This document shows positions 41,682 through 56,700 of a stretch of DNA of 64,000 nucleotides, in pieces. Position numbers and translations under genes: made by a program. Source of the DNA: Candidatus Poribacteria bacterium (GTDB taxonomy: Bacteria; Poribacteria; WGA-4E; WGA-3G); contig OZ251518.1 in NCBI GenBank assembly GCA_965242965.1, positions 5,088,001 through 5,152,000 on the forward strand, read 5' to 3'. The notes under the pieces are model-generated. The model saw only the letters and a program-made list of their open reading frames with translations, was not told where the DNA came from and searched no databases. Numbering within the stretch: position 1 is the first letter of the stretch; every line of letters starts with the position of its first letter.

Positions 41682-42953
41682 ATGGCCACCTCAACCATCA
41701 ATAAATTCCTGCTCATCTCAATCGATTGCTGGCGGTTTGACGCGCTCAGCCGCACCAATCCGTCCTTCAATACGCCCAAGTTTGAGCTCCTGACGAAAGA
41801 CTTCTCCCTCGCCGAGAAGTTCTTCGTCACCGCGCCTGCGACGCGTCCATCGCATACCTCCTATTTTACCGGGCTCTATCCGTTTGAGCACGGCGTTTAC
41901 GGGCAAACCTATCTGAAGATGTTTGAGGGCATCCCGAACCTCTTTCAGATTTTTGCCGATGCCGGGTATCATATCACGGGCCGTTCGGAACGGCATGAAG
42001 TATTCCGCTTCCTCGATTTTGAGCCGTTCATCACACCGCTTGACCCGGGTGCTACGGCGCAACACCTCGGTTCGCTTGAAGATTGCATCCGGCACCTCGC
42101 GCAACCCTCAGATACGCCGCAGTTCTGCTTCCTCCATTTTTGGTATACGCACGGCGGCTACGGTATGTCAGGCATCCCATCCGCACCTAATTTCAAGACG
42201 CTTGTGGAGAGCGGTAGAACCGATGAAGCACTATGCTTCTATTACGCCGCCGTGACGCACGTGCTGGAGTTCAAATTGGTCGAAATCCTGAAACACCTGC
42301 GCCTTTCCGAGTGGGCAGTCTTCATCTTCGGAGACCACGGTGAAGGCATCTGTGAAGAAATCATCGCGCACGGCGACACGCTGAATCAGAATGTGTTGCA
42401 TGTCCCGCTGTTGATGCATATTCCGAATGTTGGAAAATTGGATTTTCCGAATGCCCCGCTGTGCTCCCTCGATCTTTTTCCGACAATCACCAACCTCGCT
42501 GGCATTGACATTGACGTGGACTATCACGGCTATGGGAAAAACCTACTCGCGCCGGAAGCAATTGACGAAAACCGACTTGTGCTATCGGAATTAGATAGTC
42601 TATACGGCATTGGATTTCTGAGTCGGAGCAACCTGGAAATGCCGCACCACCGCGTCACCTCTCGCATATCGGTTGACAACGTTGAGATTCATCGGTATGC
42701 AGAAGGCGTTCGACTCTGGTCCCTCACCGATGGCGAGCATCTCTATCGCGAAGATGAGAAAACGGGTGAGTTTGTTTACCGAGAGGTGCTGAGTGGCGAG
42801 GATTTGCCGTGCGATGAGTCGGAACGTTTCCGCGCGGCTTATGACGACATCCTGATGAATTCCCATTACCAGCACCTCCAATTCCAAGAGACGACTGCGG
42901 AGGAGACAGAGATTCTGGAAGGGCGGCTGCGGGATTTGGGGTATGTGGAGTAA
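41682..42953 (+). CDS. Sulfatase-like alkaline-phosphatase-superfamily hydrolase/transferase
   Basis: LISIDCWRFD, TRPSHTSYFTG, GDHGE, LHVPL, RLRDLGY. Confidence 0.85.
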   Translation: MATSTINKFLLISIDCWRFDALSRTNPSFNTPKFELLTKDFSLAEKFFVTAPATRPSHTSYFTGLYPFEHGVYGQTYLKMFEGIPNLFQIFADAGYHITGRSERHEVFRFLDFEPFITPLDPGATAQHLGSLEDCIRHLAQPSDTPQFCFLHFWYTHGGYGMSGIPSAPNFKTLVESGRTDEALCFYYAAVTHVLEFKLVEILKHLRLSEWAVFIFGDHGEGICEEIIAHGDTLNQNVLHVPLLMHIPNVGKLDFPNAPLCSLDLFPTITNLAGIDIDVDYHGYGKNLLAPEAIDENRLVLSELDSLYGIGFLSRSNLEMPHHRVTSRISVDNVEIHRYAEGVRLWSLTDGEHLYREDEKTGEFVYREVLSGEDLPCDESERFRAAYDDILMNSHYQHLQFQETTAEETEILEGRLRDLGYVE

Positions 42954-43149
42954 GTGTTCGCGGGATTTACGAATCCCGCGAGCCGACTTTATGCATTGAT
43001 TGCGGTGAATCGCTTCACCAATTCCTTCTTCACCGCTTTCACCAGTTTGCTGTCATCTACCTCACACCCGGAACGATTCCGTTTCCCCGGTAGGAGAGAC
43101 CTCCCAGTCTTGATTTTTCCTCCCGGTAGGCGAGACCAGGAGGTCTCGC

Positions 43150-44859
43150 CTACCGAGCGGGTAAGGTTGTCAACACAATCTGCGCCTCGTCTTGCTGGAT
43201 GTCAGGCGGGAGCGGTTTGTAGGTGCCGTCAGGCAGCCGCTGCATCCCGCGGACCTTATCTGCTGCGAGTTGCGCATCCTTCTCTGCCAAGTAGAAGTAT
43301 CCGTCCTCTTCGTAAGTTTCAATGTCCGGAAACGGTTTCGTTCGCGCGGCAACCACCAAGAGCTCAACGCCAAACGGGGGTGTGCAGCGAAACTCGCCAA
43401 TCTCAACGTCGGTATTGGCTTGAGACGCGTCAATATAGTAGTCGTCTTGGAGGAGCGTGTATCTGCCGGTTTCAACCGGGCCCCTAAGGTTTCCACGTTC
43501 TCTTTCATCAGCGAGGATATAGAGCAGCCGGAGGTGGGCTGGTTGATTCACCCGCACAAAGACTTTCATTCTCTCGTCTTCGGTGTAAAGCACGGGGCCG
43601 CTACCTTTGTTTGTCCGGGCTTCAACCTTTAAACGGCCGTCGGTGAAAACCCGCCGTTCAACGAAAACTTTTGGATCGAACTGTTCCATTCCTCGCTCGC
43701 CGAGGGCATAGTCTGGCGGCGCGAAAGTTTCCTGTTCAGCACGAGCTGGCTGATAACCGGGTGGTTCAAAAGCAATCGGCGGACTGTAGCGGAGCTCCGA
43801 CTTGCGAAATGGCACGACAGTCGCTGCCAGAAATTCCCCTGTTTTTACATCGCGTAGGGCAGCCCGGAGGGTGAGTTCATCTCCGTTCTTCCAATAGGCA
43901 CCGTAAAGTTTTAACTGAGGATTCGGGCGGCGGATATTGGCATTTTCTTCCGTGGAGCCGCGCATTCTTTCAACAGTATCCCACTCAATTTTTTCCCGAA
44001 AGCCGTCGACGAAAATGAGATGAGATGGGCTGCACATCCCAGAATCTTCATAGGGGAACGGTTCTACCCAGACTTTGCGCCCAGGGCGGGGCACTTGCCG
44101 TAACAGTTGAGACGCAGCGACATAGGCTACATCCTCAAGAGAAACAATCGGTTTTTCCTCTAGTTCCGCAACGCGCTTAACGACGTGCCTGAACGAACTT
44201 TTATCAGTTGCTGTTGCAGCCTGCGCCATTTCCGCGAACGCTTGCGTCAAATGCGTCGAATGAGGATAATATGCCGCGCCTAGTTGAATGAGTTGCGCCT
44301 CTCTCAACGCTTCGTAAAGCGGATAGGTGCTCAAGTATTTCTGCACCGCGCTGGGGATGTCAAGATTGTCCTCCGCGGCTTGAGCTTTGTCAAGGATGCG
44401 GCGAATCTTTCGTTGCAGCTCTGATTCACGTTCGGCATAGATAACCTTGAGTTCGGCGCGGTTGACATAAGCGATGGCGTAGGTATCCAAATCTGTGCGC
44501 GCCCTATCTACCGTCAGGTTCCTGTTATGGAGCCCCGAGAGTTTCATTGATTCTGAACTCACGAGGACTGTGCTGTAGTGTTCCACTACCATGTTGTATT
44601 GCAAGTTATTGCTGTTGGCGTTAAGAATGCACCAGACCATGGCAACAATCCGTTTCGCCGCTTCCTTTCGGGCTTCTGCGGCAGCAATCTCAAAGGATTT
44701 TTCGCCAATTCCCCGGCCTCGCCCTACGTCGAAAAGGAACGTTTCAACGGGATACCTGCTGAGCTCCGGTAGGACCCAATCCGGTAAATCTGACTGTGCA
44801 GCATGCGCTGTTGCAGTTGCCGCAAACACAATCAGCAAGCAAACAAAAAATCTTTTCAT
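43150..44859 (-). CDS. Secreted protein: LPP20-like N-terminus, FlgO-like middle, DUF4384 C-terminus
   Basis: Signal peptide ATAHA; PDWV..AEARKEAA; YTEDERMKVFVRVNQPAHLRLLY..PPFGVELLVVAA. Confidence 0.7.
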   Translation of the reverse strand: MKRFFVCLLIVFAATATAHAAQSDLPDWVLPELSRYPVETFLFDVGRGRGIGEKSFEIAAAEARKEAAKRIVAMVWCILNANSNNLQYNMVVEHYSTVLVSSESMKLSGLHNRNLTVDRARTDLDTYAIAYVNRAELKVIYAERESELQRKIRRILDKAQAAEDNLDIPSAVQKYLSTYPLYEALREAQLIQLGAAYYPHSTHLTQAFAEMAQAATATDKSSFRHVVKRVAELEEKPIVSLEDVAYVAASQLLRQVPRPGRKVWVEPFPYEDSGMCSPSHLIFVDGFREKIEWDTVERMRGSTEENANIRRPNPQLKLYGAYWKNGDELTLRAALRDVKTGEFLAATVVPFRKSELRYSPPIAFEPPGYQPARAEQETFAPPDYALGERGMEQFDPKVFVERRVFTDGRLKVEARTNKGSGPVLYTEDERMKVFVRVNQPAHLRLLYILADERERGNLRGPVETGRYTLLQDDYYIDASQANTDVEIGEFRCTPPFGVELLVVAARTKPFPDIETYEEDGYFYLAEKDAQLAADKVRGMQRLPDGTYKPLPPDIQQDEAQIVLTTLPAR

Positions 44860-44901
44860 CTGTTAAGGATTCCTTATTTTAGTTAGTAGGTTGATAGTTT
44901 G

Positions 44902-44932
44902 GCTGACTTGATGCCGAAGCATCAAAGTCAGC
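44902..44932. other. Intergenic stem-loop
   Basis: GCTGACTTGATGC-CGAA-GCATCAAAGTCAGC. Confidence 0.55.
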
Positions 44933-44954
44933 GGATTCTCTCCGATTTGCGATG

Positions 44955-47165
44955 TTACTTTGCGATGAACAGGAAATCGCTCCCTGTCTCATCGCTTCCG
45001 AATCTACCGTAGCGCGGTTGAGGGCTCACCTCCTTGATGTAACCGAAAAGTTCGTCAAGGGTTAAGACGCTGTCTTCGCCGCCACCACTGCGTAGTGCCT
45101 CAAGGAATTTGCTGACAAACGGTGATGGGCCAGCCTCCTTTCCACTGAACGTGAGATACCGACGACTCCCGGCATCCCTACCCCTTTCGTCTTCGCGCAA
45201 GGAATTGGATGTTCCACTGAAGCGCGCATCTATCATCAGTAAGATATGTTGACACTGGGCACCGTCAAGAAGTTCCCAGAGAGATTCCTGGGAGACATAA
45301 CTGGTTAGCCCCGGGTCATCCGCTTCAAGTTTTGTGTCTTGAGCGACGATGTAGTCTTTTCCGAGGGACACATCAAAATACCCGCGTCCAGCGAAGAAAA
45401 CGAGGAGCTGATCTTCAGCGTCGTACTGCCGTATTGCATATTCATTGAGTTTTTCCAAGAGTTCGGTTCGCGCTGGATTTTCGACGAGTTCAACGTCAAA
45501 ACCGTAGGTTTGCTCCAGTTCCGTCTTGATTTTCATCGCATCAGGAATTGGATTGACGAGCTCTTCCCAATGTTCATAGGCATTGGTGGCGAACACTAGC
45601 GCGTTACCTTTTCTTATCGGCGGTGGTGGAGGTTCAACAATTGGCAATTCAATTGTCGCTCGCACATCCGCGCCGCCGAATTTATCAGTGATAGACACGT
45701 TCAGTATTAGGATTTGTGTCGTGCTGTTCTGTCTGATACCAACGTTGAAGGTATCCTTTTTGGACGCACCGGGGATGATGTCGCCGAGGTTTCTTGAGGG
45801 TTCTCCGAACAATTCAATCCCTTGTTCACCTTCTACCTCTATGCGGACAGTGACATCTTCGGCGTTTCCCTCGCCACTGTTTGTAACAGTTATCGAGAAA
45901 TCAATGGATTCACCCGGTTGAATAACCCCATCGCCATTGCCAACATCCTCAACGTAGGAATAATGGTAATCAAATTTTGGCGGTGGTGCGCCCACGATGT
46001 GCAGTCGCCTCTCCTTATCAGGCGGCGCGTAATTGTTATATTCCGCGAAACGCAGCGGGATTGTGAGAGTCTGTGTTTTCATAGAGGCCTCTGTTTTGAC
46101 AGGCAATTTCAACGTTCGCGATGCCCCTACGGCAATCTTTCCAAACTCCAACTTCTTGTTTTTGAACGCGGACTCGGTGCTCACAGTGTGAGTGGTGAAA
46201 CGGTAAAGAGCCCCTTTGCCGCTATTTTCGACAGTGACGCTTAATGTTGTCGTGTCTCCTGCACGCACCGGGTTGGGTTTCCAACGGGCTTCAACAACTT
46301 TCGCTAACGGTTTTCCCACCGGTTGGCCCGTTGAAAACATATCAATGCCTTCAACAACTTTGAGCGCGTGCCACCGAAACGGTTTTAATTGTTCCCATCC
46401 CTCAAGAGTGAGGGTTTCTTCGCCTGTTTTTCCATCAACCTTTGTGGAAGCGTGCACGTCAATAGATGAAAGGTTCAAGAAAGGCTTTGGTTCTTCGAGT
46501 CCATACAAGAATCCATGAATTGGGACTGTTTCATCGCCGGATGTCGTTCGGTACTGCTTGCTAAAATCGTAGGTTGGCAGTTCAATGCGATAATCCTGTT
46601 GTCTGATGCCTTGCAGTGAGCCCGCCTCTTCGCCTGTCTGCGCCCAACCTGTCCGGTGGGTTCGCCTAATGCTTCCGATGAGCCGATAAAGGACGATATC
46701 CACCGGCACACCTATCATTATCGCTTTGTTCCAGAAACTGGTTCCCTCCCAGTCAAACCGGAAATCATAGGGCTCAAAGTTGTCCCAGTCGACCTGGGTA
46801 TCCGCCAACTTTTCCTCCTTATATAACCACGTATCGTAGATTGCCTTACCCCAAAGTGCGGTGGTAGCGAGTCCAACCGCCAAATCGAGAAGTGTGGATT
46901 CGGGACGGTATTTGATGATGTCGCGCTGTTCAATTTTGTAATGGGGGACATATTGCAATTGAAACCGGAAGTCAGTTTCTGTTGCACCGAATTGAATCTG
47001 GAAGTCGCGGGGGTGCACCTCATTTCGGCGTTCTTCGGTATCAACGACAGTCGTCCTGTCGATGCCGTATCCAAAACTATTTTCCACGAGTCTGACTGCA
47101 GAGCATCCTGCTGTGCTCAGCACAATCACGCTGAACACCAAGACGTTGATGAGTTTGTGTTTCAT
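44955..47165 (-). CDS. Lipoprotein with two CARDB/Ig-like domains and a catalytically dead caspase (C14) domain
   Basis: Lipobox TAGC; GNGDGVIQPGE; caspase motifs read FFAGRG and MIDARF instead of AGHG and DAC. Confidence 0.85.
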   Translation of the reverse strand: MKHKLINVLVFSVIVLSTAGCSAVRLVENSFGYGIDRTTVVDTEERRNEVHPRDFQIQFGATETDFRFQLQYVPHYKIEQRDIIKYRPESTLLDLAVGLATTALWGKAIYDTWLYKEEKLADTQVDWDNFEPYDFRFDWEGTSFWNKAIMIGVPVDIVLYRLIGSIRRTHRTGWAQTGEEAGSLQGIRQQDYRIELPTYDFSKQYRTTSGDETVPIHGFLYGLEEPKPFLNLSSIDVHASTKVDGKTGEETLTLEGWEQLKPFRWHALKVVEGIDMFSTGQPVGKPLAKVVEARWKPNPVRAGDTTTLSVTVENSGKGALYRFTTHTVSTESAFKNKKLEFGKIAVGASRTLKLPVKTEASMKTQTLTIPLRFAEYNNYAPPDKERRLHIVGAPPPKFDYHYSYVEDVGNGDGVIQPGESIDFSITVTNSGEGNAEDVTVRIEVEGEQGIELFGEPSRNLGDIIPGASKKDTFNVGIRQNSTTQILILNVSITDKFGGADVRATIELPIVEPPPPPIRKGNALVFATNAYEHWEELVNPIPDAMKIKTELEQTYGFDVELVENPARTELLEKLNEYAIRQYDAEDQLLVFFAGRGYFDVSLGKDYIVAQDTKLEADDPGLTSYVSQESLWELLDGAQCQHILLMIDARFSGTSNSLREDERGRDAGSRRYLTFSGKEAGPSPFVSKFLEALRSGGGEDSVLTLDELFGYIKEVSPQPRYGRFGSDETGSDFLFIAK

Positions 47166-47236
47166 ATGCCGTTCCTTTTCGGTTTTTGAAATGATACCAA
47201 AATTCACGAAAAAAGTCAACTGTGTGCTGCTGACAC

Positions 47237-50200
47237 TTACTTCGTGATGAACAGAAAATCACTCCCGGGTTCATTGCGATGTCCGAATTTGCCTTGGTGA
47301 GGTTGGGGTTTCGCCTGCTCAACGTAACTGAAAAGCTCATTGAGGGTTAAGATTCCATCTTCGCCGCCTCTATCGCGGAGTGCCTCAAGCACCCAGTAGG
47401 CAAATTCTGATTTGTCGGGAACGTATTCGTTGCCGCCGGAAGTCATGTAGCGACGTGTCTTATACCCCATCACACGTTCAACGTTCACGGGCTTATCCTC
47501 ATTCTCCGCGCCTCTATGCCCGAGGAGTTCGTGATCGAGTGTTCCACCGAAGCAGGCATCTATCATCAGAAAGATATGTTTGCACGCAATATTGTCAATG
47601 CGTTCCTTGAGCAGCGGATAGGAAATATAACTGATGTGTTCTCTGTCGTTATCAGGCAGCTCCGTATCACGGGCGACGAGGTATCCGATTGGGAAAATCT
47701 CATCGAAATAGCCGTGCCCGGCGAAGAATATCATCACCTGGTCTTCGGGGTGATACGTCTTGGCTGCGTATTCACGGAGTTTAGCGAAGACCTCCTGCAT
47801 CGTCGGGTTGAGAATCAATTCAACTTCAAAACCGTAGGTATCCACTAATTCCGTTTCAATTTTCATCGCGTCAAGGCTTGGATTGTGGAGTTTCTGCCAG
47901 TGTTCGTATTCATTCACAGCAAACAACAGTGCGTAATCCTTTCCCTTCCTTTCATATCCATTCGGCACAACCGGCACACCACAATCGATGATGAGATTCT
48001 TGACTGCCTCGTTCCCCAGGGTATCCGTTGCCGTGATATGAATGCGGTTCTCCCCAAGGACAAGCGTGATATCTTTCACGAATTGCCCTGTTTCTGAAAC
48101 CTGCACCCGTTCGCCGTTGACGCGAACTTCGGCAATCCCACTCCTGTCATGGGCCCTGCCAATGAGAGGCAACTCCTTCTCCGTGACAACGATTATTGGT
48201 TGGAAGCCGCGGACCCCCGGCGGCGAGTCAATGAAAATCTCGGGGCCTTCATCATCTGGCTCTTCTGGTTCTGGCCGTGTGATGGTAAGTGTCGTAGTCG
48301 CCGTGAGCCCCCACTCATCTGTTGCCATGACAGAGATTGGGTTTTCACCATAGTTCAGCGGGACTTCTGCCTTGAATGCACCGGTTTTCAAGACTCGCAC
48401 CGGTTTCTCGTTGACGGTAACATCACGAATTCCGCTAGCAGGGTTGACGGTCCCGGCGATAATTATCTGCTTGTCCCTCTCTTCAACGGTGAAAGGTGAA
48501 CGGCGCGGATAGTTGATGTCAATCGTAAGGGACGGATTGCGAATGAAGGTGACTACCTCGGATGCTTCGTTTCCCCACCTATCGGTTGCCGTGATAGTGA
48601 TGTGATTTTCACCGGGGACGAGCGAAACTTCTGCCTTGAATGCACCGTTTGGCAAAACCCGCACCGGTTCCTCGTTGACGGTGACTTTAGGGATTTCACC
48701 ACTGTTATCAGTGACGTTCCCCGTGACAATTTTCTTGTCGTCATCCGGTGCAACCATAAAAGGCGATTCGGGAGGGAAATTGATGACAATCTCTGGCGGA
48801 ATGTCATCTACGCGAGTGACTAGAACTTCCTCAGTTTTTCTGTTGCCCCAGGTATCTGTTGCCGTGATGAGGATGCGATTTTTACCAAAGTTCAGGGCGA
48901 ATTCTTCCTGAAATGCGCCGACTGGCGAAACCTGCACCCGTACGCCATTGACAGTCACTTCCGAAATCCCGCTAGCATCTACGGCTCTGCCTGAAATCGG
49001 CAGCATCTCCGCCGAGGTAGTTGGTGGTATCGGCGGGTTAATGACAATTTCGGGTGGTGTATTATCGCCACCGCGGTTGATTATGAGTTCCTTCTTCGCT
49101 GGATTTCCCGCCATGTCTATTGCGACAATGCTGATGCTATTCGCGCCCGAGTCAAGAGCGACTTCTGCTTTGAATGCGCCGGTTTCCAAAACCCGCACCT
49201 TTTTCTCGTTGACGCTGACCTCGGCAATCCCACTAGAGTCCATCGCACTCCCGGATACGACAATCTTTCTCACATCCGCTTTGACGGTAAAAGGCGAACT
49301 GGGAGGATAATGGATAGCAATTTCGGGTAGCACCGTATCCCGAAGCGGAGGCGGTATTGGAACTACATCGCGCAGATTCCAGATTAAAACAGTGCTATCT
49401 CGGCTTCCGGTAGCGAGCATCGTTCCCATCGGTGAAAAGGCTACTGAAGTCACCCCATCAGTGTGCCCTTCAAGGGAAGCGAGTTTCGTTCTAGATGAAA
49501 CATCCCATAGGTTCACATTATCGCTAACACTTGTCAATCCTGTGGCGAGCATCTTCCCATCAGGCGAAAAAGTTAGTGCCTCTACATAGCCAATGTGTTC
49601 AAGGGTTGCAACGGCTTGCCCGGTAGAGACATCCCAGAACTTTACGGCATTGTCACTACTGCCACTTGCGAGCATTTTGCCATCGGGTGAAAATGCAACC
49701 GCGTACACAGAATGGCTGTGCCCGTTTAAGGGCCTGATTTCAGGTTCGGCACTAACAGTCCAGAGTTTGACAGTGCCATCATAACTTCCCGATGCAAGGG
49801 TATCTGCATTTGGGGAAAATGCAATGGAAGATACAGCCCCTCGGTGGCCTTCAACGGTGAAATTTTCGTTTATTCTTATCCCGAACCGCCGGCGGGATGT
49901 TGTGTCAACAGACCAGGTTCTTATTTTGCCATCGTAACTCCCGCTAGCGAGCGTCTGTCCATCGGGCGAAAACCGAACCGTCTGGACCCAATTTCTGTGC
50001 TTCAGCGTCTCAATTTCATGCCGGCTATCCACATTCCACAATTTGACAGTTTTATCGGCACTTGCCGAGGCGAGCAACTTTCCATCTGGTGAAAACGCTA
50101 CCGACTTCACCCAGTCTTTGTGCCCGGTGAGCGGCGAGAGTTCGCGATGGGCAACAGTATCCCACAGTTGGACGGTGTTATCACTAACGCCGCTGACGAG

Positions 50201-51400
50201 CAACTTTCCATCTGGCGAAAATGCAACAGCATACACTGGGCTGCTGTAGTCAATCTGCGTTATCGCGTTTTCGGGGAGAGCGCGGGAGAGTGGCACCTGC
50301 CTTAAAGGTTGCGGTGCAGCGTCGGAATTATCTTGCACTACGAGACTGATTTCGGAATTTGGAGATTGCGGTGCAGCGTCAGAATTATCTTGCACTACGG
50401 GACTGATGTTGAACTCGGAGAGATTCCAGAGAAAAATTGTCCCGTCCTCGCTACCACTTGCAAGGATATTTCCATCGGGAGAAAATGCTACCGCCTTCAC
50501 ATCTTTGCGGTGGCCCGTAAGGGTATCAATTTCGCGCCCGCTTTCCACATCCCACAACTTGATTGTGTCATCCCAGCTTGCCGAGGCAAGCGTCTTTCCA
50601 TTAGGTGAAAAAGCGACAGAAGAAATAGCGTGCCGATGTCCTTTGAGTGTCGCGATGTCATTCCAATTTTCAGCAGTCCAGAGTTTAACCGTGTTATCTT
50701 CGCTCGCGGATGCGAGCATCTTCCCATCAGGCGAGAAAACGATAGCGGACACATCCTCGCGGTATCCCCAGAGCGCGCCGATATCACGCTTTTCAGCGAC
50801 ATCCCAGAGTTTGACAGTCGCATCGCTTACCGAATTGAGGATATCACCGGCTGACACGAGCGTCTCCCCGTCCGGCGAAAACGCCACCGACTTCACATCC
50901 TTGTTGTCATCACGGAGAGTGGCGATTTCGCGCCGGTTCTTCACATCCCACAACTTAACCGTGTAATCCCGGCTGCCGCTGGCGAGCGTCTTCCCATCAG
51001 CAGTAAATGCAACGGAATTGACACCCCGGGTGTGTCCCTTGAAGGTATAGATTCCCTCGCGTTTGCCTTTAACAGTCCAGAGTTTAACGGTGTTATCTTC
51101 ACTTGCAGAAGCAAGAAAATCCGCATTAGGCGAAAAGGCAACCGAATTGACAGTGTCTCTGTGTCCTTTGAACTCAGTTATGCCGCGCCGATTCTCAATA
51201 TCCCACAATTTGATAAGCGCGCCACTTGCCGAGGCGAGGAACCGTCCATCGGGAGAAAATGCAACGGACGTTACGCTGTCGCTGAGTCTCCCCAGTTGCG
51301 TTCTCGTGTCATCAGGGAGTGCCGCCTTGGGATAAACCAAACTCGTTAGATGGATGAGGAGTGTGAACCCGAGGAGAATGGAATGGTTTTTGAATCGCAT
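47237..51400 (-). CDS. Secreted WD40 (about 14 repeats) + five Ig-like domains + caspase (C14) protein
   Basis: Signal peptide; GH..V.SVAFSPDG..LASGS.D.TVKLW repeats; D..PPEI.I Ig repeats; intact FFAGHG and MIDACF dyad. Confidence 0.92.
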   Translation of the reverse strand: MRFKNHSILLGFTLLIHLTSLVYPKAALPDDTRTQLGRLSDSVTSVAFSPDGRFLASASGALIKLWDIENRRGITEFKGHRDTVNSVAFSPNADFLASASEDNTVKLWTVKGKREGIYTFKGHTRGVNSVAFTADGKTLASGSRDYTVKLWDVKNRREIATLRDDNKDVKSVAFSPDGETLVSAGDILNSVSDATVKLWDVAEKRDIGALWGYREDVSAIVFSPDGKMLASASEDNTVKLWTAENWNDIATLKGHRHAISSVAFSPNGKTLASASWDDTIKLWDVESGREIDTLTGHRKDVKAVAFSPDGNILASGSEDGTIFLWNLSEFNISPVVQDNSDAAPQSPNSEISLVVQDNSDAAPQPLRQVPLSRALPENAITQIDYSSPVYAVAFSPDGKLLVSGVSDNTVQLWDTVAHRELSPLTGHKDWVKSVAFSPDGKLLASASADKTVKLWNVDSRHEIETLKHRNWVQTVRFSPDGQTLASGSYDGKIRTWSVDTTSRRRFGIRINENFTVEGHRGAVSSIAFSPNADTLASGSYDGTVKLWTVSAEPEIRPLNGHSHSVYAVAFSPDGKMLASGSSDNAVKFWDVSTGQAVATLEHIGYVEALTFSPDGKMLATGLTSVSDNVNLWDVSSRTKLASLEGHTDGVTSVAFSPMGTMLATGSRDSTVLIWNLRDVVPIPPPLRDTVLPEIAIHYPPSSPFTVKADVRKIVVSGSAMDSSGIAEVSVNEKKVRVLETGAFKAEVALDSGANSISIVAIDMAGNPAKKELIINRGGDNTPPEIVINPPIPPTTSAEMLPISGRAVDASGISEVTVNGVRVQVSPVGAFQEEFALNFGKNRILITATDTWGNRKTEEVLVTRVDDIPPEIVINFPPESPFMVAPDDDKKIVTGNVTDNSGEIPKVTVNEEPVRVLPNGAFKAEVSLVPGENHITITATDRWGNEASEVVTFIRNPSLTIDINYPRRSPFTVEERDKQIIIAGTVNPASGIRDVTVNEKPVRVLKTGAFKAEVPLNYGENPISVMATDEWGLTATTTLTITRPEPEEPDDEGPEIFIDSPPGVRGFQPIIVVTEKELPLIGRAHDRSGIAEVRVNGERVQVSETGQFVKDITLVLGENRIHITATDTLGNEAVKNLIIDCGVPVVPNGYERKGKDYALLFAVNEYEHWQKLHNPSLDAMKIETELVDTYGFEVELILNPTMQEVFAKLREYAAKTYHPEDQVMIFFAGHGYFDEIFPIGYLVARDTELPDNDREHISYISYPLLKERIDNIACKHIFLMIDACFGGTLDHELLGHRGAENEDKPVNVERVMGYKTRRYMTSGGNEYVPDKSEFAYWVLEALRDRGGEDGILTLNELFSYVEQAKPQPHQGKFGHRNEPGSDFLFITK

Positions 51401-51491
51401 TATTTTCTGATGGGCATCACGCATGCCTTTGTCAAGCCGCCTCTGCTGCGGAACCTCGTTTTATGGTATGAGATAGTAGTTCTATCGTTGG

Positions 51492-51796
51492 TGTAGCGCG
51501 AACGCTGGCGAGGGACAGGTCCTCGCCCTACGGTGAAAGCGGGCTTTTCTCTGTCCGTAGCGCGGGGGCCTGTCCCCCGAGATCGTTGGAGTGCGCACGA
51601 TGGCGAGGGAAACCCGTTCGCCAGCGTGTGTGGAAACCTGCGAGGGCCCTCGCCCTACGATGAAGGGGGACCTTCTGCCGCGGCGGCCCCGGGAGGCGCG
51701 CCGCCCTATTGCATCGAGACCAGGAGGTCTCTCCTACGGAGACATCAATTGCATCGAGACCGGGAGGGCGCGCCAACGGATTTATGAAACACCCTG
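51492..51796. repeat. REP-like cassette ending in TATGAAACACCCTG
   Basis: Inverted near-copy of 21461-21790. Confidence 0.85.
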
Positions 51797-51801
51797 AATT
51801 A

Positions 51802-51831
51802 ATTATACACTTTGAGTATAGCAATTGTCAA
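51802..51831 (-). promoter_or_regulatory. Sigma70 promoter facing the caspase genes
   Basis: TTGACA-18 nt-TATAAT. Confidence 0.65.
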
Positions 51832-51868
51832 GGAGAAACCCTTAAGATTTGACACTTGACGCGCACCG

Positions 51869-52999
51869 CTAATTCCTGAAGAGAGCCAGATACTTCTCCA
51901 GCACAAAAAGGCGGTTGCGGGAGAACCCAGTCATTTCCTTTAACACCCCAAGTTTTGTTAGGGACTTGAGAAGTTGATTCGCTGTTGCATAGTTCATTTC
52001 TAACGCACTTTCAACCAATCTAACGTTGACAATTGGCGTTGCGTACATGAAACTCAGCAATTTTTGGGCGTTTTTCGCTGGACGCGAGCCAAGGTTTAGG
52101 ATTTTCGCGTCGTATTCCTGACGGAGCGAAATAATCGCTTCGAACGTTTCAATGCCGTGCCGCGCTGTTGCAGCGATGCCGTTCAAGAAAAAAGCTATCC
52201 ACTGCTCCAAGTTGTTTGACTTGCGAACCATTGTGAGTGAATCGTAGTAGGAATCCCGATGCTTATCAAAGAAAGAAGACATATAGAGCACCGGTTTATC
52301 CAGCATCTGTGCGTCAATGAGTTGCAGAACGATCAAGAGCCTTCCACACCTACCGTTCCCGTCCAAAAACGGATGGATGGTTTCAAACTGATAATGCGTG
52401 ATAGCGATTTTGATCAGCGTCGGAATCTGTAGCGACTGGTTGTGCCAGAATTTCTCTAAGTCGCTTAAAAGTTCCGGCACCTCCGCCGCGGAGGGCGGCA
52501 CAAAAAACGCATCCGAAAGCGAGGAGCCACCAATCCAATTTTGACTCCTGCGAATCTCACCAGGGGCCCTATGCTCACCGCGAACTCCAGAGAGCAAGAT
52601 TTGATGCGCTTCCCGCAGCAGACGCATCGAAAGCGGTAACACCGGAAGTTTGTCAATCGCCGAATTCATCGCTTGGATATAGTTCTGAACCTCATGCCAA
52701 TCCTCGCGACGCTCCGGGTCGATCTCCTCGTGCGGTAGCACCGCTTCGTCAAGTTCGGTTTTTGTCCCTTCAATCCGATTAGAGTCTATCGCTTCTTTCC
52801 TCACCTGCATTTGGATGAAGAAATCGACATCCGGCACGAGGCCGGCGTAGGCATTTAACTCGCCTAAAAGCCGGCCTGCCTGTTCCAAGAGAACATCTAT
52901 CTGCGAGTTTTTCCAACTAAAATGACAGTTGATAAAAGAAGGGATGAAACTCCTATATTCTCGTTGCTGCCTATATTTGCCCGCTACGAATGTTTTCAT
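51869..52999 (-). CDS. Fic family protein with N-terminal Fic_N and C-terminal wHTH
   Basis: [43 protein letters not shown]. Confidence 0.93.
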
Positions 53000-53027
53000 G
53001 TCCCCATCCTCCAATTTAGGACAATTT

Positions 53028-53190
53028 AGAATTCCATATTATCATTTTTCCCGATTTTTAATAATACAGAATTCCATATTATCATTTTTCCCGATTTTTA
53101 ATAATATAGAATTCCTCATTATCATTTTCGGCGATTTTTGATAACCATAAACGCTATATTATCATTTTCGGCGATTTTTGATAATCATAA
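53028..53190. repeat. Four AT-rich 40-bp tandem repeats upstream of fic
   Basis: ATTATCA at 53038, 53078, 53118 and 53158. Confidence 0.9.
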
Positions 53191-53218
53191 ATTGATTGGC
53201 GAACTATAAAACTCGCCT

Positions 53219-53701
53219 CTACAATTCATGAATCTTCGCCGCAAGCGTGCCCAAATCCACAATCGCGACGGTAGACTTTCCTGTCGTCCAGCCGCCTGCC
53301 TCCCCTGGATTAAGCAGAAGAGACCTCTCGTTCTGAACATCGATCTGGTGTGTGTGGCCGTAAACGACGATGTCATACACGCCGCTTTTGGCAATCGGAA
53401 TAGCGAGTTCAGGATAGTGCATCACGGCGATGCTCCTGCCGCCGACAGAAACGTTCGCTAAATTCGGGTGAACCTCGCCGACAGCTTCAAACCGCTGCGC
53501 GAGGATAACGCGCTCGCCATCGTTGTTACCGAACACACCGACGACTCGGCACTCCAAATCGGCAAGGGGTGCTATTGCAAACGGCGAAATAAAATCGCCC
53601 GCGTGGACTACCAACTCTACGCCAGCATCGTTGAAGAAGGCGACAGCGCGTTCAATCTGCGGGATGTTATCGTGACTATCGGACATTACGCCAAGTTTCA
53701 T
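53219..53701 (-). CDS. YfcE/MJ0936-type metallophosphoesterase
   Basis: SDSHDN, HAGD, GNND, YGHTH, LNPGE. Confidence 0.92.
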   Translation of the reverse strand: MKLGVMSDSHDNIPQIERAVAFFNDAGVELVVHAGDFISPFAIAPLADLECRVVGVFGNNDGERVILAQRFEAVGEVHPNLANVSVGGRSIAVMHYPELAIPIAKSGVYDIVVYGHTHQIDVQNERSLLLNPGEAGGWTTGKSTVAIVDLGTLAAKIHEL

Positions 53702-56700
53702 GAGGGTTCTCCTTTTGTGTTATCGTGTCGTTGAATTCCGCGTTCATTGAGTTGTGCTAATTCTTTTTCCAAGTTGCACCGGGATTTCTTCCCACCGTGA
53801 ATGCTCGGTTCGGCAGAGAGAAGTTCCCTGAGTTTGCCTAAGGCTCGGTGGACATCGGGAGTGTGGATGTCCAGCACCTCGCGAAGCAGACGGCTGTCAA
53901 GTGTGTGACGGCCCGGGTCATCCGCAACTTCGTTAAACGGCAACATCCGTTCGTGTTTCAATTCGTGGAAAACGCGTTCGGCATTCGCTAACGCCTCATC
54001 CGAAAGACGGCGCACATCCAAGGACGGCATTCGGAGTAGGGCTCCCCTTGAACTTCTACCCCTTTTAGCCTGTTGTTTTCCACTGTGCATCCACTGGAGC
54101 ATGAGCCCAAGCGTTGAATTACCCCAGAGCGTCCAGACGTAGTCGTAATGAGAGTTTTTCAACACAACAGTCGGCAGTGAACTTATCCCAATAGCGGGTT
54201 CTTCCGTGAAGAGGACACCCAGTGAGTTTGAACTGAATCCCATACTTATGTTGAAATGGACGCGGCTGTTGAGTGCCAGTATCCGCTGTGCTTTGTCATG
54301 GCGATTGGGACGAGGAATGAGATGGCAATCGGGTTTAACCAACATGGCGCGTTGTGCAGGCGCATTCACTCGCCACAATCCGGGATAAAGGACCGGGGTG
54401 GCATAACTTTCTTCCACGTCAAACGCCCCGCGCTCCCCAGATTCATGAATATCCCTTTGATGCGCGCCGACCTCGGCAATATCGCCTACGCTGCACATAG
54501 GGATTTGTAACGGCCTCGCCTGCGTTGGTAACCACAACTCACCTGTCCCTAGGCGATACGCCGATTGGATTAACGCCATCTCCTTTATCCGAGTGGCTTC
54601 CCAGGCACCGTTCTCCTTAAGCGGACAATTGAGAACATGCCCGACAGTGCCCTCGCCGATTTTAACCAGGTCTGCGCCAATCGGGCCATCTTCCATCCGA
54701 CGCGTGCTTTTCACTCGGTGGACAGTATTTCCCACTTCGATGGCTTCTAACACGCTCCGCGGCCGATGGGTAAGCGAGACAAATGTGCCGCGCCCTGTGC
54801 ATTCCGCTTTTTCCCCTTTCGTTGCAATGACGATGCACTCCGCCATGCTTGTATCCGCCGAGAAGGCGCAGTTCTCGCCTTTCGCATCGGCGATTGTCAC
54901 CACAATCACGTCGTGGTATTCTGTCGCCCACATATCGCGGACTTTCTGCCAATGCGGTGAAACAAGGCACGTCAGCGGCAGAATGAACCCCATCTGGCTT
55001 TTCCCGTTGGGTTTTAACATCCTATCGGCAAGATCGACGAAATCGGACGCGAGCCCCGCGTTGCCGTTGCCGACGCGAAAATTTTTCCTTCTCCGCGCCG
55101 CCCGCATCTCTTGTTCTTCCTCCTTGTCCCTTCCACTCCCCTTGAAAACCGCTTTGGGCGCACCGCTACTCGCATCAGAATCCGGACGCGTAAACGGCGG
55201 ATTCTCCACGACAATATCAAAGTCTTCGTGCCTGAATTGATGCTGCGCCGTTACCGTCATGTCGTCTGCACCCCCAATCCGCTGCGCGGCTATCTCCAAG
55301 CCCATCAGGGGCAGCGGGAGGGTTTTTTCCGGCGTGTCAAGCAGCTCAAGCGAACCGAGGGCATAACTGCCATCGTCTTGTTTACCGTAAGGCAATGTGA
55401 AGATACAGGTATCCCCTATCTTGATATCCGGGGCGATGCTCGTCAGCAGTGCCGCGGTAAGATGACTGGCGTTCGGCATCACATCGCATCCGACGATGTT
55501 CTGCTCTATCATCGCCTTGTGGATGAGGTGCCCTTTACCACCTGCTTGTTCGTGCAGTTCAAGCATCCGTTGGTAGGCACCGTAGAGGAGCGAACCGGTG
55601 CCGCATGAGAAATCGGCTACCCGCAACGCGCGCACATTCGTCTGCCTTCTGGGGAGCACTAACGCCGAGAGCAAAGCAACCGATTCCAGCCGCGTATAGT
55701 TCGCTTTGATATACTTTCTGTCGACAATCAGGCGTTGGAAAACTGTCCCCGCGAGCTCATGCATCTGCGTCAGCCGCTCATCTACCAATGCTATCGCCGC
55801 ACGACATAGCAGCGCGAGCACGCTATCCACGCGTGCGTCGTCCGTGGCAATCGCCTCGATGAGCCGTTTGGCGACAGAGAAAATCGGACGGTAATTCACG
55901 TCCAGAATCACATCCCACCCCGTGAGAACCTGTTTGTAGGGCAGCCGTTCCGCATCGTCGGAGAGCAGCCGTTTCAGGGACAAGACACCTTTCACTTTCC
56001 CGGCGAGCGTGCTTTGAAACACAAGCGCGTTCGTGACGATGAGCATCGCCATCCGAGAGGTTTGCACACCCGACTTCTGGAAGAGAATCGCCTCAATTTC
56101 TGTTCCGATGTCAGGACGTTCCTGAATTGCAGCCTCCAATTGCTGCGCCGCAAACTCTATCCGTTGTTGCAACAAATCAGCAGCGGCATCAATTTGGGCG
56201 ATAGGTGTCGCGCGAACGCGAAGTACGGTTGCGATGTCGGCAACACTCCCTTGCAGCCATCCGTTTTCAGGGAAGCAGTCGGGTGACGCTAGGTTATTAA
56301 ATGTATGTGAAGGGGGGGGGGTAATTCTCCTTCTTTCAGCATCTGTTCAGGTGCCGCTTCATTGATGAACAAAGCCTGTTCGGATGCCGACGTGCCTACT
56401 GGTTTCGGCTGGCTGAGGAGCAGATAAGCGATGTCTTCCGCCTCGCGCATTTCGGATTCAATGGTGTCCTGCGGCATCGTTTTGAATCGGGCCGGCATCC
56501 GGATGCGCATCACATGCGAAACGGTATTGTAAGTGAGATAGGGAACAACGTTGGCATCGAGAAGCCTCCCGAAATGTGCTTCTGCTTGTGTCCTGCCTGA
56601 AAGATTCGGCGTATCGCCATCGATTTTCACCTCAATGACGATAGGATTCCGTCCGACTTCGGTGACGATGACATCAGGCTTTTTGGTAGCGTTGAGGAAC

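Follow-up and report, generated by a model that had tools for sequence, protein, structure and literature searches.

Our analysis of a 64,000-nucleotide stretch of the genome of Candidatus Poribacteria bacterium (GenBank assembly GCA_965242965.1, contig OZ251518.1, positions 5,088,001 to 5,152,000; hereafter the window, in whose own numbering all positions are given) centers on P0001, a gene for a putative lipoprotein whose C-terminal caspase-fold domain carries Arg at both positions of the catalytic His-Cys dyad. By its sequence this domain has lost catalysis, the loss is conserved in close relatives, the predicted fold is kept, and export signals are present. Our results support, with moderate confidence, a model in which P0001 encodes an exported, lipid-anchored pseudo-orthocaspase, that is, a protein whose dead domain is a folded, noncatalytic module partnered with the active caspase of the neighboring gene and with a DUF4384-like protein. 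The gene and the key parts of its dead domain are these:

44955..47165, minus strand: pseudo-caspase lipoprotein gene P0001 (736 aa; ATG at 47165, stop at 44955-44957)
44958..45608, minus strand: dead Peptidase_C14 (caspase-fold) domain, residues 520-736 (PF00656, AlphaFold2 [AF2], and Foldseek)
45384..45386, minus strand: Arg594 codon, CGC, at the catalytic His position (Arg in five of seven clade members)
45222..45224, minus strand: Arg648 codon, CGC, at the catalytic Cys position (Arg in seven of seven clade members)
45540..45542, minus strand: Asp542, S1-pocket Asp of the NPxxDA motif, aligned to GCINDA of yeast metacaspase-1 (4f6o)
45228..45230, minus strand: Asp646, second S1 Asp, two residues before the Cys position (kept in seven of seven)

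Both substitutions can be read directly on the minus strand, where GGA CGC GGG gives AGRG and GAT GCG CGC gives DAR, in agreement with a sequence-only reading of the window that had placed the two CGC codons at 45384-45386 and 45222-45224. P0001 reads FFAGRGYF and MIDARFSG where the aligned product of the neighboring gene, P0002, reads FFAGHGYF and MIDACFGG, and the further motifs that the same reading had described as shared (YEHW, NP..DAMKI, TYGF, GGED..LTL.ELF, and GSDFLFI) are all visible in the alignment of the two proteins, whose C-terminal regions have 126 identities over 270 positions (47%; BLASTP E = 4e-61). PF00656 matches residues 520-649 of P0001 with E = 8.1e-13 and 49 bits against a cutoff of 21.4; in a scan of the whole genome (5.70 Mb in two contigs, 94.66% complete), which counted 10 C14 matches, the score was 51.1 bits. 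The His-Cys dyad by which an active peptidase is recognized is absent, with Arg594 and Arg648 in its place. A candidate assignment to the EACC1-associated caspases (NF047832) was rejected, at 42.3 bits against a curated cutoff of 140.

The open reading frame (ORF) is intact, as had been claimed, and there are no stops or frameshifts in any of the seven sequences of the clade formed by P0001 and its six close relatives. Its start required correction: the ORF as listed, 44955..47219, began at a TTG at 47219 that is part of a -35 hexamer, TTGACT, whereas the true start is the ATG at 47165, because 13 of 13 aligned homologs have a signal peptide and lipobox directly after the ATG. An assembly or sequencing artifact can be ruled out, since the Arg residues recur in independent assemblies and runs (both in P0004-P0007, the Cys-site Arg also in P0003 and P0019), and the contig of run X1, with five differences over 45222-45605, has none at either Arg codon. 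The dead domain is neither an assembly error nor a fresh pseudogene.

A word-indexed search returned five full-length orthologs (P0003-P0007, with 92, 80, 81, 75, and 73% identity, respectively) and seven homologs of ~965 aa with 35-40% identity, and P0019, a 228-aa fragment at 91% identity, came from an exhaustive search in which the domain was the only query. In the C14 domain, these six close relatives are 70-90% identical to P0001. Arg occupies the Cys site in all seven members of the clade and the His site in five of the seven: P0004-P0007 are RR like the query, P0003 and P0019 are HR, and the ~965-aa forms are all His/Cys. Altogether, the 166 homologs besides the query comprise 153 HC, 4 RR, 2 HR, 1 HS, 1 HA, and 1 HV sequences and 4 that could not be aligned at the dyad, so that a dyad change outside the ortholog group is seen in three sequences only. 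Every one of the 71 active homologs that were aligned keeps the dyad (100%). Thus dyad changes are rare in this family, RR is confined to the ortholog clade, and the dyad change exceeds chance. The conservation of Arg/Arg on which the sequence-only reading depended is seen in four of the six relatives (five of seven with the query), the Cys-site Arg is seen in six of six, and none of the six keeps His/Cys, the pattern that would have spoken against a selected inactivation.

The history of the His site is more involved. In a quick IQ-TREE analysis, P0001 joins P0003 and P0019 in a trio with a support of 97, and the His of P0003 and P0019 requires two changes if it is a reversal and three if His changed to Arg in parallel; it is most simply a reversal. 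The codons of P0002 at the two positions, CAC for His1237 and TGC for Cys1291, are each one transition from CGC, and by transitions alone a His or Cys codon can become only Arg or Tyr. Because each CGC is a single transition away, Arg/Arg need not have been selected as such, and the proposal that it is the selected state is weakened, since mutational accessibility alone could explain it. No short-form ortholog was found in 61 genomes of relatives or 112 genomes of the family, where the best match was a long form at 46% identity, and queries with the protein and with the alignment found no DNA of close orthologs in genome contigs or metagenome contigs.

Two side observations concern the Cys site and its surroundings. 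A second paralog family, with proteins of 708-725 aa and an N-terminal C14 domain, keeps the His and has Arg for Cys (MFDSRFSG, MFDSRFSS), and is an independent Cys-to-Arg pseudo-caspase. It occurs in two species of a related genus, at loci L021 (G032) and L022/L053 (G020:C1:2447000-2466900; ORF at L053 8436-10610, minus strand), its Arg codons are CGC and CGT, and no other C14 domain lies in the 19.9 kb around the G020 gene. In P0001 itself, the loop after the Cys position (45161-45221) is an indel hot spot among strains, with a 6-base deletion at 45216 in four of four runs and an 18-base stretch that becomes 54 bases in three runs; these indels fit the variable-length loop of P0004-P0007.

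Structure prediction suggests that the fold outlived the active site. From a 78-row alignment, AF2 models the dead domain with a mean predicted local distance difference test score (pLDDT) of 90.4 and a predicted template modeling score of 0.88, and residues 668-736, beyond the Pfam match, belong to the same predicted fold as the C14 domain. Foldseek matches of the model include the MALT1 paracaspase (E = 2.8e-10, TM-score 0.62), the Geobacter protein GSU0716, and caspase-6. The best structural matches, to MALT1 and GSU0716 (8v4x, 3v4o, and 3bij), range from E = 2.8e-10 to 3.5e-9 with TM-scores of 0.61-0.62; at 13-16% identity they show the fold only, and MALT1, unlike P0001, is an active Arg-specific protease. 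Asp542 and Asp646 are retained in seven of seven clade members. The family profile puts NPxxDA on GCINDA of 4f6o (Yca1), which makes Asp542 the first S1 Asp, and Asp646 is equivalent by motif position to Asp211 of TbMC2, which a published survey gives as the S1 Asp two residues before the Cys (PMC6426788). The two retained Asp residues would still bind a basic side chain. A complex prediction for the C14 domains of P0001 and P0002 gave ipSAE scores of 0.14 and 0.10, where the mark is 0.32, with controls not run, and is counted neither way.

The pattern of variation within the clade argues for continued constraint on this fold. We defined conserved columns as those at least 85% conserved in the 71 active homologs, which gave 71 such columns, and 48 of them are intact in all seven clade members. 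Among the seven clade sequences, variation touches 12 of 67 conserved columns (18%), compared with 70 of 150 others (47%; Fisher p = 4e-5), and the variable fraction is graded by conservation, at 18%, 36%, and 58%. Mean pairwise identity in the clade is 79.4% for the domain, 83.5% for the N-terminus, and 80.2% for the CARDB region. The dN/dS check that had been proposed could be made only as a rough ratio of nonsynonymous to synonymous polymorphism (pN/pS) from 40 of 250 contig differences, with 36 changed codons, 14 of them synonymous and 22 nonsynonymous. The whole gene has a ratio of ~0.47 (binomial p = 0.022 versus neutrality); when it is divided, in a small sample, the domain gives 0.40 (n = 12, p = 0.11) and the remainder 0.50. 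These results point to a history in which catalysis was lost, the surroundings of the active site were remodeled, and the fold was then kept conserved under purifying selection with partial relaxation.

The dead domain does not appear to be a recent copy of the domain of P0002. The quick IQ-TREE analysis recovers the pseudo-caspases as a monophyletic group (100) whose sister clade is that of the long-form lipoprotein caspases, with a Shimodaira-Hasegawa-like approximate likelihood ratio test (SH-aLRT) support of 81, and the P0002 domain falls in another subclade, with weak support for the deep branches. A FastTree analysis of 175 domains instead places the clade weakly with the WD40-caspases (support 80); because the two trees disagree, the deep placement is not firm. 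The picture of a recent tandem copy, as in a comparison with cFLIP and caspase-8, does not fit the grouping with the long-form lipoprotein caspases (SH-aLRT 81). P0001 would descend from the lineage of ~965-aa lipoproteins carrying an active C14 domain. Those long forms carry an extra insert of ~230 residues with a GEWYRV-type segment.

Ahead of the dead domain, P0001 consists of an export signal and three further parts:

47103..47165, minus strand: signal peptide and lipobox (LSTAGC, Cys21), read from the sequence
46278..47102, minus strand: N-terminal module, residues 22-296, a beta-sandwich plus helical hairpin of no named family (AF2 pLDDT 80.2)
45675..46277, minus strand: two CARDB/Ig-like domains, residues ~297-380 and 413-497 (Pfam CARDB E = 2.3e-11 in two stretches; DUF11; Big_3_5)
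45609..45644, minus strand: linker rich in proline, PIVEPPPPPIRK, with Arg518 as its last residue (invariant, 14 of 14 sequences)

By its signal peptide and its lipobox with an invariant Cys, P0001 would be classed as a bacterial lipoprotein: all 14 aligned sequences have G20 and C21, and ..GCS is found in 14 of 14 ORFs for the N-terminal module (N-module) at related loci. The predicted model of this module has no Foldseek match in the Protein Data Bank at E <= 0.001. Its best VIA match (Z 7.7; 78 residues, root-mean-square deviation 2.8) is to the MG domain of a bacterial alpha-2-macroglobulin, a likeness that may be only the common beta-sandwich arrangement, and matches to pore-forming proteins were disregarded as very weak (Foldseek, TM-score ~0.1). 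A TIGR03900 region match covers the CARDB/Ig-like part (E = 9e-39, below the cutoff). Arg518, invariant and just before the dead domain, is a speculative cleavage site for an Arg/Lys-specific enzyme.

P0001 lies between two genes on the same strand:

47237..51424, minus strand: upstream neighbor P0002, 1395 aa, with a signal peptide, 14 WD40 repeats, five Ig-like domains, and a C14 domain
43150..44859, minus strand: downstream neighbor, 569 aa, with a signal peptide, DUF4384-like (Atlas 0.97 to DUF4384 clusters)

The C14 dyad of P0002 is intact (His1237, CAC; Cys1291, TGC), and P0002 is probably an active caspase. The 569-aa protein resembles DUF4384/LPP20-type proteins, with a Pfam DUF4384 match of E = 0.0016 that is below the cutoff. 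Signal peptides are present on all three gene products. In our model, protease activity in this lineage would come from the adjacent exported WD40-Ig-caspase, the three genes together would form a cell-envelope module, and the dead domain would be a binding or scaffold partner, or a substrate, of its active neighbor.

The genes for the N-module, the caspase, and the DUF4384-like protein are linked across genera. G012 (locus L051) encodes, in this order, an N-module lipoprotein of 349 aa, a WD40-Ig-caspase of 863 aa, and a homolog of the 569-aa protein; in G004 (L050), a 913-aa long-form His/Cys caspase stands beside two homologs of the 569-aa protein; and at 12 further places an N-module ORF lies within ~3 kb of a caspase ORF of 850-930 aa. 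The N-module itself takes three forms: a separate protein of ~350 aa whose gene lies next to a WD40-caspase, part of a fusion with an active caspase, or part of a fusion with a dead one. Two details of these loci may be added: two ORFs, of 385 and 173 aa, make up the G012 homolog of the 569-aa protein, and the pair of N-module and caspase is found twice in G007 with equal scores (G007:C1:4333370-4337050 and G007:C2:878906-882586), either as a real duplication or through assembly redundancy.

Near-identical DNA is present in 15 sequencing runs from eight studies, those with a clear organism label being sponge metagenomes, and one homolog, 35% identical, is named a caspase family protein of Candidatus Poribacteria bacterium. 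None of the 15 is listed as an RNA run, so that they bear on expression neither way. The source organism is a probable Poribacteria-type sponge symbiont. Exported WD40 and adhesion-type proteins of sponge symbionts are thought to mediate host contact.

Pseudo-caspases as such are a known class. According to a survey of orthocaspases, 858 of 9,994 bacterial sequences have dyad substitutions, the common dyads being YS, YA, FS, QC, HA, YN, and YG, and cyanobacterial pseudo-orthocaspases, such as SyOC of Synechocystis 6803, keep the two acidic S1 Asp residues (Klemencic et al. 2019, PMC6426788). Among 30 rows for Poribacteria in its Table S1, six are pseudo-orthocaspases (five RS and one RC) and none is RR, the remainder of the table not being searchable for it. 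By its p20-type domain, dyad substitution, and retained S1 Asp residues, the P0001 domain would be a pseudo-orthocaspase: it shares with these proteins a prokaryotic C14/p20-type domain, the replacement of both dyad residues, and the two S1 Asp residues, whereas it differs from them in its RR dyad, its C-terminal position on an exported CARDB lipoprotein, the active paralog adjoining it, and additional losses on the pocket side. Among the papers listed by full-text searches on Poribacteria and caspases and on DUF4384 and caspases, judged by titles and abstracts, none dealt with caspase homologs of Poribacteria. At the level of sequence the finding is modest, its particular features being the RR variant, the exported lipoprotein architecture, and the active paralog side by side with the dead one.

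Two eukaryotic systems offer comparisons. Human cFLIP has death-effector domains and regulates caspase-8 by heterodimerizing with it. In both cases a dead caspase-fold paralog is encoded near an active one, but P0001 has no death-effector domain by Pfam or NCBIfam and is apparently not a recent copy of its partner caspase, so that the analogy drawn in the sequence-only reading holds only loosely. Table S1 of the orthocaspase survey lists cFLIP with Arg at the His position, as an 'RV' dyad (PMC6426788). More instructive is Trypanosoma brucei MCA4, described in a published study as a lipid-anchored pseudo-metacaspase that is processed by the active MCA3 and released (PMC3220528). Like P0001, MCA4 is a lipid-anchored, membrane-associated dead member of the caspase family that coexists with an active relative; in contrast to P0001, it is eukaryotic, has a single substitution, and is held by a myristoyl/palmitoyl anchor rather than a bacterial lipobox. 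Processing of P0001 by its neighbor is suggested by the MCA4/MCA3 case, and by that model P0001 might be cleaved at the invariant Arg518.

Dead caspase homologs are common in bacteria, and we know of none with a known mechanism. The locus is a clean test case, with a dead domain and a probably active paralog side by side, both carrying export signals, to which the dead-domain gene adds a conserved lipid-anchor signal and a conserved promoter-like site of its own. The pair could reveal whether bacterial pseudo-caspases serve as partners or as substrates of active ones.

Several observations weigh against the model of a maintained noncatalytic partner. The pN/pS estimate draws on 40 of the 250 differences. 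In active long forms the caspase domain is the best conserved part (82.6% versus 63.4% for the N-terminus), with a domain-to-N-terminus divergence ratio of 0.48, whereas in the pseudo-caspase clade that ratio is 1.25, ~2.6-fold higher, and in the quick IQ-TREE analysis the stem of the clade is long, at 0.73 substitutions per site, the sister clade having 0.50. All clade members have lost 12 of the 71 conserved positions, the telling losses being C648R, G604D, S673F, D654N/S/P, Y678, and a 7-residue deletion that takes out a 100%-conserved Asp and two Gly. With G604D, S673F, D654, and the loop with its invariant Asp among the losses, the claim that the hits fall at exactly the dyad does not tell the whole story, and the substrate groove may be gone. 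Inside the closest trio the His site alternates between Arg and His, which shows that Arg at this site is not a strict requirement. Genus g5 has the N-module without any caspase domain, so the dead domain may be dispensable, and the genome G002 (94% complete), of the same genus as the window, has no close homolog of P0001 or P0002 (best matches, E = 6.8e-7 for the whole of P0001 and 30% identity for the P0002 domain), an absence that makes the three-gene module accessory. Selection relaxed throughout the domain, which the sequence-only reading had named as fatal to its proposal, is contradicted by the purifying constraint that remains (p = 4e-5), although relaxation in part, at ~2.6-fold, is borne out.

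The same observations invite a rival account in which the domain is a degenerating passenger, its function lost after redundancy with the active neighbor, that survives by fusion to a useful N-terminal lipoprotein and whose apparent constraint merely avoids misfolding. A rate of evolution that, measured against the N-terminus, exceeds that of active cousins, the lost positions with the loop deletion, the Arg/His toggling, the standalone N-modules without a caspase domain in other genera, and the missing module in G002 would all be expected of such a passenger. However, the domain is intact in all seven sequences at divergences down to 70% identity, its variation avoids the family-conserved columns, and its pN/pS is not above that of the rest of the gene, small as the sample is; moreover, a useless domain of 217 residues would be expected to have been truncated, as this lineage has already lost the ~230-residue insert. 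We consider this account rather unlikely, though one to be taken seriously. Less probable is a self-plugged decoy, as the sequence-only reading had envisaged, with Arg648, and perhaps Arg594, lying in the domain's own acidic S1 pocket as a P1 mimic, Arg being specifically selected and the domain acting on the active caspase as a decoy or as its allosteric partner in a heterodimer. The retention of both S1 Asp residues and of Arg at the Cys site throughout the clade is consistent with this idea, as are the cleavage after basic residues ascribed to orthocaspases in the survey (PMC6426788) and the independent Cys-to-Arg change in the second paralog family, where the CGT and CGC codons suggest that Arg outlived a synonymous change; yet a single transition leads to CGC from either CAC or TGC, the His site is back to His in two of seven members, and further conserved residues on the pocket side are lost. 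We would similarly doubt a bolder version in which the Cys-site Arg, with at least two independent paralog origins, was selected and fills the S1 pocket, leaving a self-liganded, lipid-anchored pseudo-protease that docks onto, is clipped by, or restrains the neighboring exported WD40-caspase at the cell surface; if true, bacteria would have, outside the cytoplasm, an equivalent of the cFLIP/caspase-8 and MCA4/MCA3 pairs. Scarcely credible are an artifact of assembly or sequencing, given the recurrence of the Arg residues, and a protease that is still active through another nucleophile, given that no other Cys or His is present at these positions and that the dyad is 100% conserved in the active homologs. 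A maintained, noncatalytic partner of the neighboring caspase remains the reading that we favor.

The regulatory sequences around P0001 include two predicted elements:

47191..47219, minus strand: promoter-like site, TTGACT-17-TATCAT with an extended -10 TG (scores 10 of 12)
44902..44932, minus strand: stem-loop with a UUCG loop and without a U tract, between P0001 and the 569-aa gene

P0001 had been said to have its own promoter near 47192-47219. The site is there and conserved, but as a single match it is weak, the region having 13 such sites compared with 6.6 +/- 2.8 in shuffles. Translated in the N-terminal extensions that were wrongly called for P0006 and P0007, the stretch gives VDFFR[E/K]FWYHFK, at most one residue away from its reading in the window, and is kept even though these two orthologs are only 73-75% identical as proteins; the promoter-like site gains support because the stretch is nearly identical there. 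In a different frame, the same extensions contain the end of a caspase gene lying upstream, which means that P0006 and P0007 too have preserved synteny with a caspase-domain gene. The leader between the -10 element and the ATG (47167-47184) has indels among close strains while the -35/-10 stretch is kept: 16 bases are missing from runs X1 and X2, 35 bases are inserted at 47184 in run X10, and the insert of P0006 and P0007 is longer.

Upstream of P0002, a perfect promoter-like site (12 of 12) lies at 51831-51802, and between it and the start of the WD40-caspase are ~370 GC-rich bases at 51430-51800 (minus strand) with repeated motifs, namely, GTAGGGCGAGG...CCTCGCC-type hairpins and CCTCCCGGTCTCGATGCAAT twice. 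Rfam gave no match at E <= 0.1 over 42000-53500. Farther upstream of the caspase cluster, 51869-56175 (minus strand) encodes a Fic/DOC-domain protein (Fic_N + Fic), a phosphoesterase of the calcineurin-like type, and a protein of 825 aa that matches Eco57I methylase only weakly, below the cutoff (E = 1.3e-4). On the other side of P0001, the UUCG stem-loop, which may act in RNA stability, in processing, or as an atypical terminator, has a predicted energy of -22.6 kcal/mol (z = -4.35), and none of 200 shuffles was as stable.

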